Part shown: positions 565 to 15,340 of the stretch, one piece after another
Numbering within the stretch: position 1 is the stretch's first letter
Layout of the letters: the number at the start of each line of letters is the position of its first letter
Virus record (IMG/VR): IMGVR_UViG_2772190774_000001
Location: 1-64,000 of that record
From: a virus
Lineage: Duplodnaviria; Caudoviricetes
Direction: 5' to 3' (one strand)
Length of the DNA stretch: 64,000 nt
Notes under the pieces: model-generated
Told to the model about the DNA's origin: nothing
The model's database searches: none
The model's input: the letters and a program-made list of their open reading frames with translations, nothing else
Made by a program: the position numbers and the translations under genes

Positions 565-1254
565 CTACTGGGCGACGCCTGCTACTCGCCGTCGCATCTC
601 GGCGAGGAGATCCTCATCCCCGATATCGGAGATGCCTCTCTCCACAACGACCTCGGTAACACTTGCCTCCTCGTACGTGATGGCTCCGGATGCGGCGAGG
701 GCTTCGAGCACGGGGCGCCCGTAGGCCCGCGCCAAGCGAATCGCGACCTCTGGCTTGGGAGTTGCCCGTTCGGCTCGCCAGCGCCACACGGTGACCTTGT
801 CCACGCCAGTCGCGTTTGCGATGGCCGCCTGGGTAGCCCTGTTAGTCACGTGCTCGACGTACTCCCACCACGAGTCGGCACGGATATGCGCAAGGTCGCC
901 CGTCTGCGTTGGAGGCGACCAAGTTCCTGTCTCAACGACCTTCTGGACGCAGGCAATCGGGTCCTCTTCGCCGAAGTGGAACCACTCGCCGTGGGAGCGG
1001 AGATGACCGAAGCATCGGTGCAGGCGCGTTTCCAGTTCCGCGCCACCCGGATGACTCCACAGAACCGTGAGCGGTACCGGCGACATGCGCTGGATCTCGG
1101 TGCGCCGTCTGCTCACGTCCTCTGATCGGCCGATCTTAACCAGGGCGCTCTCGGCGCACCCGATGAGATAGACGTACTCCTGGACCCCGCCCGCCTCGGC
1201 ATCGATGGAGGACGGTCCGGATCCTTCCGACGGCTGAATGGTAAGTTCGTGCAT
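565..1254 (-). CDS. GIY-YIG (T5orf172/MUG113-like) domain fused to XRE-family HTH repressor domain
   Basis: YVYLIG..VKIGRS..LE..LH..F..LR..GEWF, then TQAAIANATGVDKVTVWRW HTH and a repressor-like C-terminus. Confidence 0.75.
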   Translation of the reverse strand: MHELTIQPSEGSGPSSIDAEAGGVQEYVYLIGCAESALVKIGRSEDVSRRRTEIQRMSPVPLTVLWSHPGGAELETRLHRCFGHLRSHGEWFHFGEEDPIACVQKVVETGTWSPPTQTGDLAHIRADSWWEYVEHVTNRATQAAIANATGVDKVTVWRWRAERATPKPEVAIRLARAYGRPVLEALAASGAITYEEASVTEVVVERGISDIGDEDLLAEMRRRVAGVAQ

Positions 1255-3838: not shown

Positions 3839-4018
3839 ATGACCGACACCGACCAGCGGCCGGCGCTCGACGTCCGCCCCCTGGCCTACGCCCTGCACCA
3901 CATGATCCCCGACCTGCACGCGGTGATCCTTCCCGGTGAGACCGTGACGGACCTGCGGGCCCGCCGTGACGCCGCCGCGGATATCTTCGACGACCTGCTC
4001 GCCGAGGCGGTGGCGTGA
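3839..4018 (+). CDS. Hypothetical protein
   Basis: AGGAG RBS; coupled to next gene. Confidence 0.6.
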   Translation: MTDTDQRPALDVRPLAYALHHMIPDLHAVILPGETVTDLRARRDAAADIFDDLLAEAVA

Positions 4019-5637
4019 TGACGACCTACTACGACCACCGCGCAGAGCGGACGATGGCTGAGGCCGAGGCCGACGCCCGCCGCGCTCAGGCGGAGGCGCT
4101 TCGGGTAGAGACCACGCTCCGCCTTGAGCGTGAGCGCCGCCAGATGGAAACCGACCGCGTCCAGCAGGAGCGGCGGGCCCGCGAGGAGCGTGCGCGTAGC
4201 CGCACGGCCCAGCGGGAGAACCGCCGCCGCCAGCGCGAGCAGACACGTGCCGCCCGCCGTGCGGCGATCCGCCGCGGCGCCGGAGCGCTCCGCACCGCCA
4301 CCGTGCAGCGGGTTCCGTTCCTCGTCGGCGGCGTCGCCATGGGCTCCCCCATCGCCATCGCCTGGAACGGCCAGTACCAGTTCGCCGAGCAGATCATGCA
4401 CCTCGGGGCACTGTCCCCCGCCCTGCCGATCGCCCTCGAAGGCGCCGTCTGGTACCTCGCCTACCTCACCCACCGGGCCATCACCCAGCACCTGCCCACC
4501 GTCCGCTACCGGGTCGCGACCTGGGCCCTCGCCGCGGTGGCCGCGACCATGAACTTCTGGCACGGCAGCGCCCCGAAGGGTCTGCCGGCGAACGCCCCGC
4601 AGCAGCTCATCGAGCAGGCCACCCGCGACGCCCAGCAGACCGGCGTGGCCCTGGCCCTGGCGAGTCTCCTCGGGATCGGCCTGTGGGAGCTGACCGTCGG
4701 CCTGACCCAGCACACCGCCTCCCGCCGCTCCCTGACGGAGATCCGCCGCGCCGCCTGGCGCCGCCTGCGCTACCCCCGCCTGTCCTGGCAAGCCGCGTCC
4801 ATCCGGGCCGCCCGCGGCGAGGACTGCACGATCGAGGACGCCTGGGCCGCGGCCTGGGTGGATCGGTACGGCGTCGGGCCTGACGCGCCCCGCCGGGACC
4901 GCCGCCTCGGCCGGAAGGTCACGCGCTACCAGTCGAAGGCCGACCGTAAGGCGGCGAAGGACGGTCGCCTGTCCATCGTCGGCGGGCAGATCGTCGGACG
5001 CCCCTCGCTTGACCCCGCGCCGGCCGACCCGGAAGGCGAGAAGGCCATCGAGCAGCTCCGCTCGTGGGACGGCGCCGCAGCCACCCAGCGTGCCATCGAC
5101 CGCACCGCCGTGAAGATGCTCGCGTTCGGCCACGACTTCATCAACGGGCGACGCGCAGCCTCACCCGAGGCCGTGCCCACGCTGGCACCGCTCAAGCCGC
5201 TGCCGAAGCTGGACACCGTGCGGGCCGACGCCGGCCCTGACCCCCTGTCCACCCTCACGACTCCCCTCACCGACTCCCACACGCCGAACCACCCGGCCGA
5301 CGAGGAAGAGCGTGAGGACGATCGTGAGGAGACCGGCAACCGCCGCACCCCCACTGAGCAGGTCAATCGCGCCGCAGAGGAATGGATCCGTGCAAGGTGC
5401 CGCGGCAGGAACGGCGTAGGCCGGCGCCCCTCTTACCGGGAGGTCGGCGACCGGTACGACCGCAGTGAAACCTGGGGCGGCAACCGTGTGCGTGCGGTGC
5501 AGGAGCGGATGGCGGCCCAGGGCTACGAGTTCCACGACGACGGCACGGTCACCGCGCCGCGCAAGCCCCTCACGGAGTCCGTCACCGCTGTGAACGGCTC
5601 CCGCTCCCACCCTGAGACCGCGACGGAGGTGTCGTGA
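4015..5637 (+). CDS. SpdB-like (DUF2637-like) membrane spread/transfer protein
   Basis: N-terminal coiled coil, about 4 TM segments (LPIALEG..W; N.WH), Pro-rich linker, C-terminal HTH-like segment; lies upstream of TraB. Confidence 0.65.
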   Translation: MMTTYYDHRAERTMAEAEADARRAQAEALRVETTLRLERERRQMETDRVQQERRAREERARSRTAQRENRRRQREQTRAARRAAIRRGAGALRTATVQRVPFLVGGVAMGSPIAIAWNGQYQFAEQIMHLGALSPALPIALEGAVWYLAYLTHRAITQHLPTVRYRVATWALAAVAATMNFWHGSAPKGLPANAPQQLIEQATRDAQQTGVALALASLLGIGLWELTVGLTQHTASRRSLTEIRRAAWRRLRYPRLSWQAASIRAARGEDCTIEDAWAAAWVDRYGVGPDAPRRDRRLGRKVTRYQSKADRKAAKDGRLSIVGGQIVGRPSLDPAPADPEGEKAIEQLRSWDGAAATQRAIDRTAVKMLAFGHDFINGRRAASPEAVPTLAPLKPLPKLDTVRADAGPDPLSTLTTPLTDSHTPNHPADEEEREDDREETGNRRTPTEQVNRAAEEWIRARCRGRNGVGRRPSYREVGDRYDRSETWGGNRVRAVQERMAAQGYEFHDDGTVTAPRKPLTESVTAVNGSRSHPETATEVS

Positions 5638-6348: not shown

Positions 6349-8475
6349 ATGACCATCGTGATTCCCGGTGGACCGGACGCCGGCGAGGGGCGCCCGAATG
6401 TGGAACTCCTCCCCGAGGACGACGACTTCGCCCTGCCGGCCAAGCGGGACAGCCTCACCAACCCCGCGGACTTCGACCCCGACTACGACGCCGAGCGAGT
6501 CACCGAACCCGGCGAGATCATCACCGGGCGCCCCGTTGACCTGCCCGAAGACCCCCGCGTCACCCTCACCGGCAAGGCGGAAATCGCCCGCCGGCCGATC
6601 GTCCCCGCATGGGCCCGCACCCGTACGGACTTCGAGACCGCGGCCAAGCACTGGGCGGACCGCACCTGGTACCGCACTCGCTTCCACGCCGCGTACTCCC
6701 CCCTGTACGCGCTGAAGGTCCTGCGGTGGGCGCCCGTCGGAGCGGCCCGCATCATCGCCGCGGCCTGGCGGTGGACGTTCGACGCCGAGCAGGCACCCCT
6801 CCGGAAGTCGGAGGCCCGCCCCGGCGGCAACGTCGACGCGTACCTGCGGCTGGTGAACGAGCGGAACAACCGGGTCAAGCGGCGCCTGCCCATCGTGGGA
6901 GGCGGTGCTGCCGCGGTCCTCGGCACCGGGGTCGCCGCGTACGCGACGCTTCCCAGTCCCGCCCTGGCCGGCCTCGGCGCTCTAACGGCGCTGCTGCTCG
7001 CACGGCACGGGCGGCCCGCGGACAAGCCCCTCACCAGCACAGCCGTGGTACTGCAGCGGTACGAGCGCCTCACCGCCGAGCGGGTCCGCGAGGCGCTGTG
7101 CTCCATCGGCGTCTCCGGCCTGAAGGACCCGAAGCGGATCAGCTTCCCCACGGAGATCCACCGCGACGGGCCCGGCCAGCTCGCCCGGGTCAACCTGCCC
7201 CCCGGCGTGGAGGCAGTGGACGTGTGCGAGAAGCGGGGCAAGCTCTCCAGCGCTCTGCGCCTCCCCGTCGACCAGGTGTGGACCACCGCAGGCCCCGACC
7301 ACGCCGGCCAGCTTGACCTCTGGGTGGGCTACCAGCCCGCGTCGAAGATGCGCCCGCCGAAGTGGTCGCTCGCGCAGGACGGCGCCCGGACCAGCGTGTT
7401 CGAGCCCGCCGAGTTCGGCGCTGACCAGCGACAGCGGCCCGTGTCCGCGCCGCTGTTCGCCCGGAACTGGCTGATCGGAGGCGTCCCAGGGTCGGGTAAG
7501 TCGTACTTCGCGCGGGCGCTGGCACTGGCCGCCGCTCTCGACCCGACGGTCGAGTTCAAGATTGCCGAGTTCAAGGGCACCGCCGACTTCGGCGACTTCG
7601 AGCCGCTGTGCAGCGACTACTACTGCGGTGTCGACGACGAAGCGTTGGAAGGTGGCGCCCGGATCATCGCCTGGGGGCTCGCCGAGGCGGAGCGCCGCGG
7701 CAAGCGGATCAAGAAGTTCCGCGAGCAGGGCCGCGCCCCCGAGGGCAAGGTCACCCCGGAGCTCGCCGCCGAACCCGGATCCGGCCTGCACCCCGTGGTG
7801 ATCCTGATCGACGAGGCGCATGAGCTGCTGGTGGATCCGGATGTAGCCACCGCTGCCGAGCGGCTCATCAAGCGGGGTCGGGCGCTTGGGCTGATCGTCA
7901 TCTTGGCGACGCAGATCCCCGACGCCAAGTCGGTTCCGCCGATCATCACCCGGTGTGTCACCATGCGCGCCTGCCTGGCCGTTCAGGACCACATCGCAAA
8001 CGACATGATCCTGGGCACCGGCTCATACAGGCGGGGGGTCACGGCCACGTCGTACCGGCCTGGCCTGGACGCCGGGTGGGCGATGGTGACCGGCCTGGAA
8101 ACGCCGATCGCGGTGCGCTCGCAGTTCCCCGACGAGGCCACAGGCAAGAAGATCCTCAAGCGGGCGATTCAGCTCCGCGGCGGGGTCATCCCCGGCGGGG
8201 ACGACGAAGAGACCCCCCGTCTGGACGTGCTCATTGACGTTCAGCGGGTCTGGCCTGCGGAACGCGCCGGGATGCAGTGGCAGCACCTCGTGGACTTGCT
8301 CACCGAGTTCCGCCCGGAGGTCTACGGCGACCTGACCAAGGAATCGCTGTCCGCGCTGCTGCGCGGGCTTGGCGTCCCGTCGGAGGCCGTGAAGGCGAAC
8401 GGCAGCACCCTGCAGGGCTGCAAGCGGGTCGCCATCGGTGCCGCTCTGGAGCAGCGGGAGCTAGGCCGTGGGTAG
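6349..8475 (+). CDS. traB: FtsK/SpoIIIE-family conjugative dsDNA translocase (TraB-like)
   Basis: TM segment, Walker A GGVPGSGKS, Walker B VILIDEAH, RGRALG..VILATQ, C-terminal winged-helix-like domain. Confidence 0.9.
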   Translation: MTIVIPGGPDAGEGRPNVELLPEDDDFALPAKRDSLTNPADFDPDYDAERVTEPGEIITGRPVDLPEDPRVTLTGKAEIARRPIVPAWARTRTDFETAAKHWADRTWYRTRFHAAYSPLYALKVLRWAPVGAARIIAAAWRWTFDAEQAPLRKSEARPGGNVDAYLRLVNERNNRVKRRLPIVGGGAAAVLGTGVAAYATLPSPALAGLGALTALLLARHGRPADKPLTSTAVVLQRYERLTAERVREALCSIGVSGLKDPKRISFPTEIHRDGPGQLARVNLPPGVEAVDVCEKRGKLSSALRLPVDQVWTTAGPDHAGQLDLWVGYQPASKMRPPKWSLAQDGARTSVFEPAEFGADQRQRPVSAPLFARNWLIGGVPGSGKSYFARALALAAALDPTVEFKIAEFKGTADFGDFEPLCSDYYCGVDDEALEGGARIIAWGLAEAERRGKRIKKFREQGRAPEGKVTPELAAEPGSGLHPVVILIDEAHELLVDPDVATAAERLIKRGRALGLIVILATQIPDAKSVPPIITRCVTMRACLAVQDHIANDMILGTGSYRRGVTATSYRPGLDAGWAMVTGLETPIAVRSQFPDEATGKKILKRAIQLRGGVIPGGDDEETPRLDVLIDVQRVWPAERAGMQWQHLVDLLTEFRPEVYGDLTKESLSALLRGLGVPSEAVKANGSTLQGCKRVAIGAALEQRELGRG

Positions 8476-8536
8476 CGACCGGCGAACACCTCGGAACCCC
8501 GGATTCAGGCCCTCTGAAGCCGTTTCCCGGGGGCTG

Positions 8537-8625
8537 CCACAACCCGCAACCTCTGCGTGTTTCAGCAGATCAGACCGGTTGTGCCGCCAGGTTGCGGCGG
8601 CACAACCCCCGGCAAGGCCACAACC
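8537..8625. repeat. Six 8-mer repeats SCRCAACC, candidate clt/TRS transfer locus
   Basis: CCACAACC 8537, CCGCAACC 8544, GGTTGTGC 8577 (rc), GGTTGCGG 8590 (rc), GCACAACC 8600, CCACAACC 8618; directly downstream of traB. Confidence 0.6.
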
Positions 8626-8642
8626 CTCGATTGGAGTCAAGA

Positions 8643-9374
8643 TTGAGCACCCTGAAGGACGTTCTCGCCGCTTTCGTTGAGGCGGGAGTCCAGGCCGGAG
8701 ACCTCCACCGGGCACTGGACGCGGTTACTGAGGACCTGCGGCGTCAGGTGACGTACTTCGTGGAGCGGCACGGCTTCGTAAAGATCGGCACGACAAGCGA
8801 CCTAAGGTCGCGCATCGCAAGCTTGAACCGGGGTGACAGTGCGATCCCCGGGATGACCGTGTCGCCGGTCAATCTGTTGGCTGTGATGCCGGGCGGCCGG
8901 CCGGTAGAGCGGGCGATCCACCAGACCTTCGCGAAGCTCCGGTTCGATGGTGAGTGGTTCCTGTTCGACGAGCCGCTCGTCGGGTTCGTCCGCTCGGTGG
9001 CCGCTGCCGCAGAAGAGACCAACCCTGCGGTCCAGGACATCATCAACCGGGCGCACCGCGACGCTCAGGCCGCCGCGCGTGGCAGGACAACTCGGACGCA
9101 CATCCTCACCGATGTCCGCCAGATGTTCCGGGACGGCGAGAGACACCTGCCGTGGCATCTTCTCGCCGATCGCTTGTCGGAGGCCATCCCGAACGAGTAC
9201 GGCGGCATCACCCAGGAGGCGCTGAGCGCCGAGGTGCGCGCATTCAAGGTTCCGTCGGTCGACGGGAAGCGCGGCGGCGTCGTCCGGAAGGGCGTGAAGC
9301 GCCTCGACCTGGAGTCCGCAATTCAAAGACAGCAGGTGAGCGCGACCGAAGGAGAGTTTCAGTGCTTGAGCTGA
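8643..9374 (+). CDS. GIY-YIG (T5orf172-like) domain fused to TraB-type C-terminal wHTH domain
   Basis: GGAG RBS + TTG; TYFVERHGFVKIGTT..LRSR..VERAIH..F..LRFDGEWF; C-terminus aligns by eye with the TraB C-terminus. Confidence 0.75.
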   Translation: MSTLKDVLAAFVEAGVQAGDLHRALDAVTEDLRRQVTYFVERHGFVKIGTTSDLRSRIASLNRGDSAIPGMTVSPVNLLAVMPGGRPVERAIHQTFAKLRFDGEWFLFDEPLVGFVRSVAAAAEETNPAVQDIINRAHRDAQAAARGRTTRTHILTDVRQMFRDGERHLPWHLLADRLSEAIPNEYGGITQEALSAEVRAFKVPSVDGKRGGVVRKGVKRLDLESAIQRQQVSATEGEFQCLS

Positions 9375-9577
9375 TCGCCGTCGGAGCGATCTTCACCGCC
9401 GTCTATTTGATCTCTTGCTGGTTCCACCCCTACCGCGTGTGCAAGGCGTGCGAGGGGTCCGGCCGGAGCCTGTCCACCACCTTCAAAGGCGCATGGGGCG
9501 ACTGCCGGTCATGCAAGGGCACCGGCCGGAAGATCCGGTTCGGCGCGTACGTGCTCGGCCGGACCGGCGGAGCCTGA
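9362..9577 (+). CDS. Small membrane protein with DnaJ-type zinc finger
   Basis: TM helix; CKACEGSG and CRSCKGTG. Confidence 0.7.
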   Translation: MLELIAVGAIFTAVYLISCWFHPYRVCKACEGSGRSLSTTFKGAWGDCRSCKGTGRKIRFGAYVLGRTGGA

Positions 9578-10012: not shown

Positions 10013-10240
10013 ATGGGGCTTTTCAGCAGCAGGATGAGCGACGCCGAGCTGGCGAAGGCGAAGGGCCAGGCCCGCAGCGCCAACCGGGAGCAGCGCCTGG
10101 CCATGGACGCGATCAACAGCGGCAACACCCGCGCGGATCGCGCGCGGGCCCGGCAGGAGCTGGCGCGGTTGAAGGGCAGCGAGGCCGCCGCAGACAAGGC
10201 GATCAAGGCGACGGAGAAGAACGTCCGGTCCTGGTGGTAG
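10013..10240 (+). CDS. Mini helical protein (75 aa)
   Basis: AAGGAG RBS; MGLFSSR...RSWW. Confidence 0.65.
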   Translation: MGLFSSRMSDAELAKAKGQARSANREQRLAMDAINSGNTRADRARARQELARLKGSEAAADKAIKATEKNVRSWW

Positions 10241-15255: not shown

Positions 15256-15340
15256 TGGGGTGCTCTCGGCGGGGACTCGAACCCCGCACCACGCGGCACC
15301 GGGGACAACCGCGCATCCTGCCGTTAGACGACGAGAGCAC
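15256..15340 (-). tRNA. Non-canonical tRNA-like element, isotype not assignable
   Basis: rc: GTGCTCTCG/CGAGAGCAC acceptor + C + CCA, D arm GTC-TAACGGCAG-GAT, stem CGCGG/CCGCG with 12-nt loop, T arm GCGGGG-TTCGAGT-CCCCGC. Confidence 0.6.

Follow-up and report, generated by a model that had tools for sequence, protein, structure and literature searches.

A T5orf172 nuclease domain and a TraB-type winged helix in one protein

The DNA analyzed here is a stretch of 64,000 nucleotides (the window), positions 1 to 64,000 of the 73.7-kb IMG/VR provirus record IMGVR_UViG_2772190774_000001, and our subject is an open reading frame (ORF) of 243 codons that lies directly downstream of a traB gene and is separated from it by a short region of clustered repeats (Table 1). 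In Streptomyces-type conjugation a single FtsK-like pump, TraB, reads the 8-bp repeats of clt, and we know of no nuclease that acts on clt. A first-pass annotation, made from the sequence of the window, had described the product of the ORF as a nuclease-like domain of the GIY-YIG/T5orf172 kind fused to a duplicate of the DNA-recognition domain of TraB, and had offered three roles for it: processing of the element's own transfer substrate, competition with TraB at clt, or cutting of rival elements.

The reading frame starts with a TTG codon at 8643, preceded by the sequence GGAG, and ends with a TGA codon at 9372–9374; its third-position G+C is 0.82, compared to 0.90 for traB. The equivalent start codon is used in six homologous protein clusters, which are 52–77% identical over nearly the full length. 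We rejected a 365-amino-acid version that would start from a GTG codon at 8277, because the extension overlaps traB out of frame and has no support from homologues, the relatives starting at the position equivalent to 8643. Longer fused versions of the ORF were not found, a negative result that carries little weight. The ORF is the first of a tightly packed run of small genes, and neither a sigma-70-type promoter nor an intrinsic terminator was found between positions 8300 and 9800.

The N-terminal part of the protein has the nuclease-like character that had been claimed for it. Residues 41–110 scored above the Pfam cut-offs for both PF13455 (MUG113; 35.8 bits, cut-off 22.3) and PF10544 (T5orf172; 32.2 bits, cut-off 20). 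The residues kept within the domain are Y38, K47-I48-G49, R57, E89, and H93, with R57 and E89 being invariant or nearly so throughout the relatives. When the protein is aligned with the nuclease Odn of phage ICP1 (Odn sequence from NC_015157), these two residues correspond to the catalytic Arg and the E180 of Odn; the mapping comes from a sequence alignment between distant domains that are approximately 21% identical overall. An AlphaFold2 (AF2) model of the protein had a predicted local distance difference test score (pLDDT) of 84 for the whole protein and of approximately 90 over residues 36–120, which follow the order beta-beta-alpha-beta-alpha; the closest structural match for the nuclease part was the GIY-YIG domain of Slx1, with a middling Z score of 5.2. 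The nuclease domain is the best-conserved portion of the protein. No relaxase family (HUH, Rep_trans or similar) was found among the Pfam and NCBIfam matches of the ORF at E values up to 1, and a sequence search of solved structures with the ORF gave no match.

The C-terminal part parallels the C-terminus of TraB, again as had been noticed in the first-pass annotation. By BLASTP, residues 149–232 of the ORF product align without gaps to residues 622–705 of the TraB of the window (33% identity over 84 residues, E = 6e-12), and profile-profile comparison by hhalign of seven nuclease-borne with nine TraB-borne copies of the winged helix gave a probability of 99.8% (E = 2.4e-30). AF2 predicted the topology H-E-H-H-H-E-E-H for the C-terminal domains of both the ORF product and TraB, the TraB model having a pLDDT of approximately 90 over its winged-helix domain. 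When used for structural searches, both winged-helix models retrieved PadR, Cdt1, TubR, F-93, and Rex; the scores were middling, the highest for the ORF being a Z of 6.3, but they were consistent. Pairwise alignment and structure prediction thus agree, the alignment being significant and the predicted fold the same. A search with the winged helix alone against 1.8 billion representative sequences gave 66 matches, which consisted of TraB-like C-termini from proteins of 660–780 amino acids, a few T5orf172 fusions, and many short fragments. Here and below, L numbers denote comparison loci and P numbers denote proteins or protein clusters. P0027 (1065 amino acids) was rejected as a nuclease fusion, since it is TraB-sized with a LAGLIDADG_3 match in mid-protein, and so was a 353-amino-acid match in G003, which is a TraB cut off at the end of the locus. 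The LAGLIDADG_3 match of P0027 lies at residues 577–637 and probably marks an intein within the motor domain.

The TraB of the window is 29–42% identical to TraB/FtsK proteins from replicons of Streptomyces, Pseudonocardia, and Nonomuraea, one of these homologues being located on a 12.6-kb Streptomyces venezuelae plasmid. The module also contains a GntR/UTRA regulator (1329–2033) and a DUF2637 membrane protein (4015–5637), which together with TraB make it a typical TraB module. The C-terminal winged helix of TraB from pSVH1 recognizes clt (Vogelmann et al. 2011, as cited in PMC4447253), and TraB proteins bind 8-bp repeats in clt (PMC4447253). Because TraB proteins recognize such repeats, clt-like is a reasonable label, for a predicted function, for the 167-nt gap between traB and the ORF (8476–8642), which holds four copies of CACAACC within 88 nt; in the whole window there are 11 copies, with 7.7 expected. 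The position next to clt that had been assigned to the ORF therefore stands, with clt read as clt-like. The fold of the gap is unexceptional (z −1.5), and no known RNA family was found in it.

The same layout of repeats, with other 7–8-mers, is present in L016, L017, L019, L001, L023, and L024. The repeats differ by element (CACAACC, CGCCACG/CCGCCAC, CCGCTCCC, and CGTAACG/CGCTACA), and TraB C-termini that are 65–70% identical can adjoin entirely different 7–8-mers. A core of approximately 13 nt, TTT-N2-GC-N-G-R-TCA, is conserved; it occurs once in the window, with 0.1 occurrences expected, and is found at position 615 of L016, 674 of L017, 348 of L019, and, on the minus strand, at 523 of L001, 1544 of L021, and 11660 of L005, with variants in L023 and L024. 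The core is found both in loci that have the nuclease gene and in loci that lack it, its orientation varies, and it could be a loading point for TraB, a site for a host factor, a promoter element, or the target of the nuclease. Avoidance of CGCTACC, the repeat of the P0026 type, was not seen in the window, where there are 12 copies as compared to 7 expected.

Table 1. Positions in the window of the nuclease gene, its predicted domains, and the adjoining features of the traB module.
Feature	Position	Strand	Basis
traB, FtsK/SpoIIIE-like conjugative DNA translocase, 708 aa	6349..8475	+	Pfam FtsK_SpoIIIE (E 1.2e-5); PHROG 1358
C-terminal winged helix of TraB (aa 622–705), presumed clt reader	8212..8463	+	Alignment, AF2; role from literature
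clt-like repeat region	8536..8626		CACAACC three times direct and once inverted; GCAACC variants; inverted pairs around core TTTCAGCAGATCA (8560–8572)
Gene for T5orf172–winged-helix protein, 243 aa	8643..9374	+	Frame, Pfam, BLASTP, homologues, AF2 model
Predicted T5orf172/GIY-YIG-clan nuclease domain (aa 36–122)	8748..9008	+	Pfam, invariant columns, Odn alignment, Slx1 structural match
TraB-type winged helix (aa 149–236)	9087..9350	+	BLASTP, hhalign, AF2; predicted recognition helix aa 191–199, wing aa 206–219
Small membrane protein, two CxxC pairs	9362..9577	+	Overlaps end of ORF by 13 nt; conserved traB-clt neighbor in relatives

Descent of the winged helix

The description of the C-terminal domain as a duplicate of that of TraB was correct as to homology with TraB winged helices, but the domain is not a copy of the one in the adjacent TraB. 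In a tree of 80 winged helices, seven of the eight nuclease-borne C-terminal copies fall in one clade (support 87/82), which includes an inner clade with support of 99/94. This nuclease-borne clade adjoins the TraB domains of P0026, L022, P0027, and L016, and a clade of their own (100/98) is made up of the TraBs that are resident in the window, L017, and L019. The ORF winged helix is 47–49% identical to those of other TraB lineages (47% for both the P0026 and the L022 TraB), as compared to 32–33% for that of its own TraB (32% over the whole domain). Within the predicted recognition helix and wing, the ORF product is identical to its own TraB at 12 of 29 positions, to P0026 at 19 of 29, and to the L022 TraB at 21 of 32. 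The possibility that the domain is a recent duplicate of that in the adjacent TraB was rejected on the basis of both the tree and the tables of identities.

Comparison of the window with L016 is informative as to what the winged helix might read. Over the recognition helix and wing the two ORF products are identical at 24 of 29 positions, with helices that are near-identical (two changes at the helix end), whereas the two TraBs are identical over the same region at 11 of 31 positions and the local repeats are CACAACC and CGCCACG, respectively. The recognition helix carried by the nucleases is in fact nearly constant across four repeat families with differing TraBs, which argues against the local repeats being what it reads.

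An optional gene from a modular lineage

Contigs were fetched for all of the full-length relatives. The ORF follows the C-terminus of TraB in six loci (the window, L001, L016, L017/L018, L019/L020, and L022). Its history differs from that of traB, since the two phylogenies disagree; for example, the ORFs of the window and L016 are 77% identical, and their TraB C-termini are 34% identical. In L023, which has a TraB most like that of L019, the ORF is absent, and the last repeat is followed by a hairpin of the GGTGGTTGCGG type and then by a gene that starts MRDRMPPE. In L017, the same GGTGGTTGCGG-type hairpin and the same MRDRMPPE gene come after the stop codon of the ORF. These matching flanks indicate that the ORF is a clean insertion or deletion of approximately 720 bp. 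L024, whose TraB is P0026, is also without the ORF. Co-occurrence with traB, a check suggested in the first-pass annotation, is found in the six loci, but the gene is optional, given that these two close traB-clt relatives do without it.

The position of the ORF relative to the small membrane gene with two CxxC pairs (Table 1) also varies, as the ORF precedes that gene in the window, L016, and L022, and follows it in L001. This CxxC membrane protein, which has a weak match to a DnaJ-type zinc finger, is additionally encoded in L016 (from 1422), L022 (from 1050), L001 (603–893), and L024 (6357–6611). Another small gene, with the motif (M/R)PPE-LA(R/K)AKGQA in its product, recurs downstream of traB-clt in L017 (1565–1792) and L023 (from 3443), and the window contains a related copy starting MGLFSS at 10013–10240.

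The fusion was absent among 11 pattern matches in a collection of species-representative genomes, and none of the 401 Actinomycetes genomes that were sampled yielded it, TraBs being the only matches there. Plasmid and phage collections gave matches to the T5orf172 domain, none of which covered the winged helix; viral contigs gave relatives of the nuclease domain only; and the ORF was absent from the plasmid TraB loci that were examined.

Relatives of the nuclease domain were found joined to other DNA-binding modules and in another order. Twelve protein clusters (P0011–P0022, 165–216 amino acids) have a C-terminal T5orf172 domain that is 59–73% identical to that of the window, and most of them start with an N-terminal winged helix of the TraB type (E = 5e-8 to the TraB of the window, and down to 8e-11 against a two-sequence profile). 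These N-terminal winged helices form their own clade (94/96) beside the plasmid TraBs of L004 (Pseudonocardia) and L005 (Streptomyces). The permuted genes at L002 (8001–8567) and L003 (4816–5385) lie on contigs resembling actinomycete integrative and conjugative elements (AICEs), one to two genes upstream of a short FtsK/SpoIIIE Tra; the contigs carry GntR, and L002 has a tyrosine integrase. L002 encodes both a 432-amino-acid Tra and a full TraB of 694 amino acids, the winged helix of which belongs to another clade. We rejected the possibility that the winged helix of the permuted protein is shared with the short Tra of L002 and L003, with similarity being undetectable, and likewise for the full TraB of L002.

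The cluster P0023 has a different C-terminal domain, of another type than the TraB winged helix, which shares 44% identity (E = 3e-16) with the C-terminus of a 597-amino-acid HerA/FtsK-like ATPase encoded next to it. In its loci, L039 (1139–3507) and L040, the nuclease gene overlaps the end of the upstream ATPase gene, and the contig encodes a GH25 lysin. Judged from these alignments, P0023 shows that a nuclease of this lineage has copied the tail of a neighboring DNA motor a second time, independently. The sequence comparisons as a whole point to one nuclease lineage that has taken up DNA-binding modules several times, three of them from DNA-pumping ATPases. The window also encodes a second T5orf172/MUG113 protein (565–1254, minus strand, 229 amino acids), which has an XRE-type helix-turn-helix (HTH) and whose gene neighbors that of the GntR regulator, on the left side of the module.

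The module lies inside, or directly against, a temperate provirus of the siphophage-like kind. The provirus record has genes for a tape measure protein, a portal, a large terminase, and an endolysin; no tyrosine integrase was found in it. The closest plasmid TraB (39% identity) is located on pPaSha2 of Pseudonocardia alni (CP052773; L004/L038), a circular molecule of 41.9 kb with genes for terminase, portal, capsid, holin, and Bet, which makes it a full phage genome. The window and pPaSha2 together indicate that TraB modules inside temperate phage genomes recur, and temperate actinophages or phage-plasmids equipped with a Streptomyces-type transfer pump seem to be a recurring kind of element. 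A phage with a TraB pump could spread without virions. ARAGORN placed a tRNA-Asp (GTC) gene at 15259–15338 of the window, on the minus strand.

Possible functions and their implications

The reading that we favor, and to which we would give an even chance of being correct, is that the ORF encodes a nuclease similar to homing endonucleases and to Odn, directed at the clt-type DNA of other elements, whether related or rival, and not a factor that processes DNA for the transfer of its own element. In this proposal a free-standing T5orf172 nuclease gene, of the GIY-YIG clan, would have captured its targeting module from the clt-reading winged helix of a TraB of another lineage, and the gene would now be an optional cassette, flanked on one side by the clt-like repeats and on the other by the following gene of a provirus-borne TraB module. 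Most likely, the winged helix would bring the protein to clt-type DNA in those related or competing TraB elements that are without the cassette. One candidate for the target is the set of 8-mers read by the TraB lineage that donated the winged helix; a second is the conserved core in the clt-like regions, which would suit a constant recognition helix. The nuclease domain would then cut near the docking site, and the cassette would spread as the cut is repaired (homing), the competing element would be damaged, or both. That the protein binds and cuts DNA, what its target is, and what would follow biologically are all inferred here. Of the three roles proposed in the first-pass annotation, the cutting of rival or related elements fits best; the other two, the processing of its own substrate and competition at its own clt, are poorly supported given the optional cassette, the foreign lineage of the winged helix, and the constant recognition helix.

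The proposed logic is that shown experimentally for Odn against the origin of the satellite PLE. Odn (Gp88 of the Vibrio phage ICP1; Barth, Nguyen and Seed 2021, PMC8263062) consists of a T5orf172 domain and a domain that shares 42% identity with RepA_N, which binds the origin of PLE; its cleavage of PLE origins depends on the iterons, its E180A mutant is inactive, and it appears to drive the swapping of PLE replicon modules (PMC8263062). The ORF product resembles Odn in being a phage-borne protein of approximately 230 amino acids with a T5orf172 and a DNA-binding domain, in having a binding domain approximately 40–50% identical to the site-recognition domain of a mobile element's DNA-handling protein, in the alignment of the catalytic Arg and Glu, and in having a borrowed domain that resembles non-resident relatives more than it resembles anything that the carrier itself needs. 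It differs in that the RepA_N of Odn is N-terminal and its target is a satellite replication origin, whereas the ORF product borrows from a conjugative translocase, of which it has the C-terminal winged helix, its carrier itself has TraB and clt, and the activity and target of the ORF product are predictions. The literature searched held no description combining TraB, clt and GIY-YIG, or T5orf172 with TraB. The exact fusion can accordingly still be called undescribed, as the first-pass annotation had it, but the principle has been published for Odn.

The proposal also agrees with what is known of the T5orf172 homing endonuclease genes of phages (Barth, Dunham and Seed 2023). These genes are modular, swap their DNA-binding regions, adjoin essential genes, and mark the boundaries of exchange, and 87% of the described T5orf172 members use CapR/DUF723/DUF4397 zinc-finger modules (bioRxiv 10.1101/2023.03.23.533998). 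Swappable binding modules, a core-gene neighbor, variable presence, and a boundary in history are features of the ORF as well; unlike those genes, it uses a winged helix of the TraB type and sits in an actinomycete conjugation module. As compared to the Streptomyces TraB of pSVH1 and its C-terminal winged helix, the winged helix of the ORF product is of the same domain family as the TraB C-termini examined here and has the same predicted topology, and the ORF adjoins 7–8-bp repeats after traB, but the ORF product is without the translocase motor and the membrane part, and its winged helix belongs to its own clade, apart from the resident TraB.

Several points weigh against the proposal of a nuclease directed at other elements. 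The winged-helix tree was built from 87 columns only and has a midpoint root, and it is the nesting in this tree only that points to a direction of capture from TraB to nuclease. The 33% identity to the resident TraB may be compatible with a shared specificity, and there are pairs of ORF and motor that are closer (45% in L022, and 44% in L039 with its other type of domain). The comparison loci are mostly metagenomic contigs of 1–5 kb, too short to show element boundaries or hosts. An ordinary accessory gene that spread by recombination would likewise account for the pattern of presence and absence and for the discordant trees. Finally, the core is intact beside the ORF itself, so self-cutting would somehow need to be avoided.

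Among the alternatives, the one that survives best, unlikely as we consider it, is that the protein is a domesticated DNA-binder that does not cut, either a repressor or organizer of the tra/spd region or a competitor that masks the clt site, with the T5orf172 domain serving for DNA contact or oligomerization. Relatives of the T5orf172 homing endonucleases have indeed been domesticated as regulators, such as the CapR of PLE that represses ICP1 capsid genes; the ORF stands first in a dense series of small genes, and the second T5orf172 protein of the window has an XRE-type HTH. However, CapR has kept its DNA-binding domain alone and lost the T5orf172 part (bioRxiv 10.1101/2023.03.23.533998), whereas here the nuclease domain is the best conserved and the Odn-type catalytic Arg and Glu are invariant, and the element already has a GntR-type regulator, as in TraR/KorA systems.

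We regard as still less probable that the protein is an accessory transfer factor acting on its own clt. In that scheme the repeats of its own element would be occupied by the winged helix next to TraB, and nicking or linearization by the nuclease would allow the TraB ring to pump the DNA. The location of the gene directly after traB-clt in six loci, the domain fold in common with TraB, and the overlap with the conserved gene for a small membrane protein in the tra/spd region are what would be said for it, along with the open question in the field of how a closed circle passes TraB. Against this, the gene is optional, with L023, L024, and the examined plasmid TraB loci being without it and none found in the 401 sampled genomes; its winged helix comes from another TraB lineage; its recognition helix is constant across four repeat families; and its tree disagrees with that of traB. 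If the ORF did act on its own clt, this would bear on the passage of closed double-stranded circles through TraB. The least probable of the alternatives is a general defense or exclusion effector of the prophage or host against phages and plasmids, with the winged helix as a generic DNA anchor, for although the gene lies in a provirus, a common site of defense genes, and its T5orf172 domain matches the PADLOC candidate defense family PDC-S57, that match is weak (E = 6.6e-6) and confined to the nuclease domain, and the linkage to traB-clt, the repeated capture of translocase readers, and the constant recognition helix favor a specific target.

A broader extension of the favored reading, in which the nuclease is aimed at clt-type DNA of other elements, can be put forward tentatively, and we think it more doubtful than credible. 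According to this extension, one T5orf172 lineage of actinomycete phages and integrative elements would repeatedly steal the reading heads of DNA pumps, with two acquisitions of a TraB winged helix, one at either end of the protein, and a single acquisition of the C-terminal domain of a HerA/FtsK-like motor, and would cut the clt-type loading sites of rival conjugative elements. If so, the sites of conjugative transfer would be contested in an arms race of the Odn kind, one party to which is a temperate phage with a TraB-clt module of its own, and this could explain the fast diversification of TraB recognition domains and of their 8-mers.

The seven nuclease-borne and many TraB-borne winged helices, with their neighboring repeats, are material for working out a recognition code for TraB. 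If the ORF product is indeed directed at clt-type DNA of related or rival elements, then the principle established with Odn, that of a nuclease equipped with the specificity domain of its victim, would extend from a vibriophage and its satellite to the phages, plasmids, and AICEs of actinomycetes. In that case clt would become a target in conflicts between mobile elements, and there would be a testable reason for the rapid turnover of its repeats.

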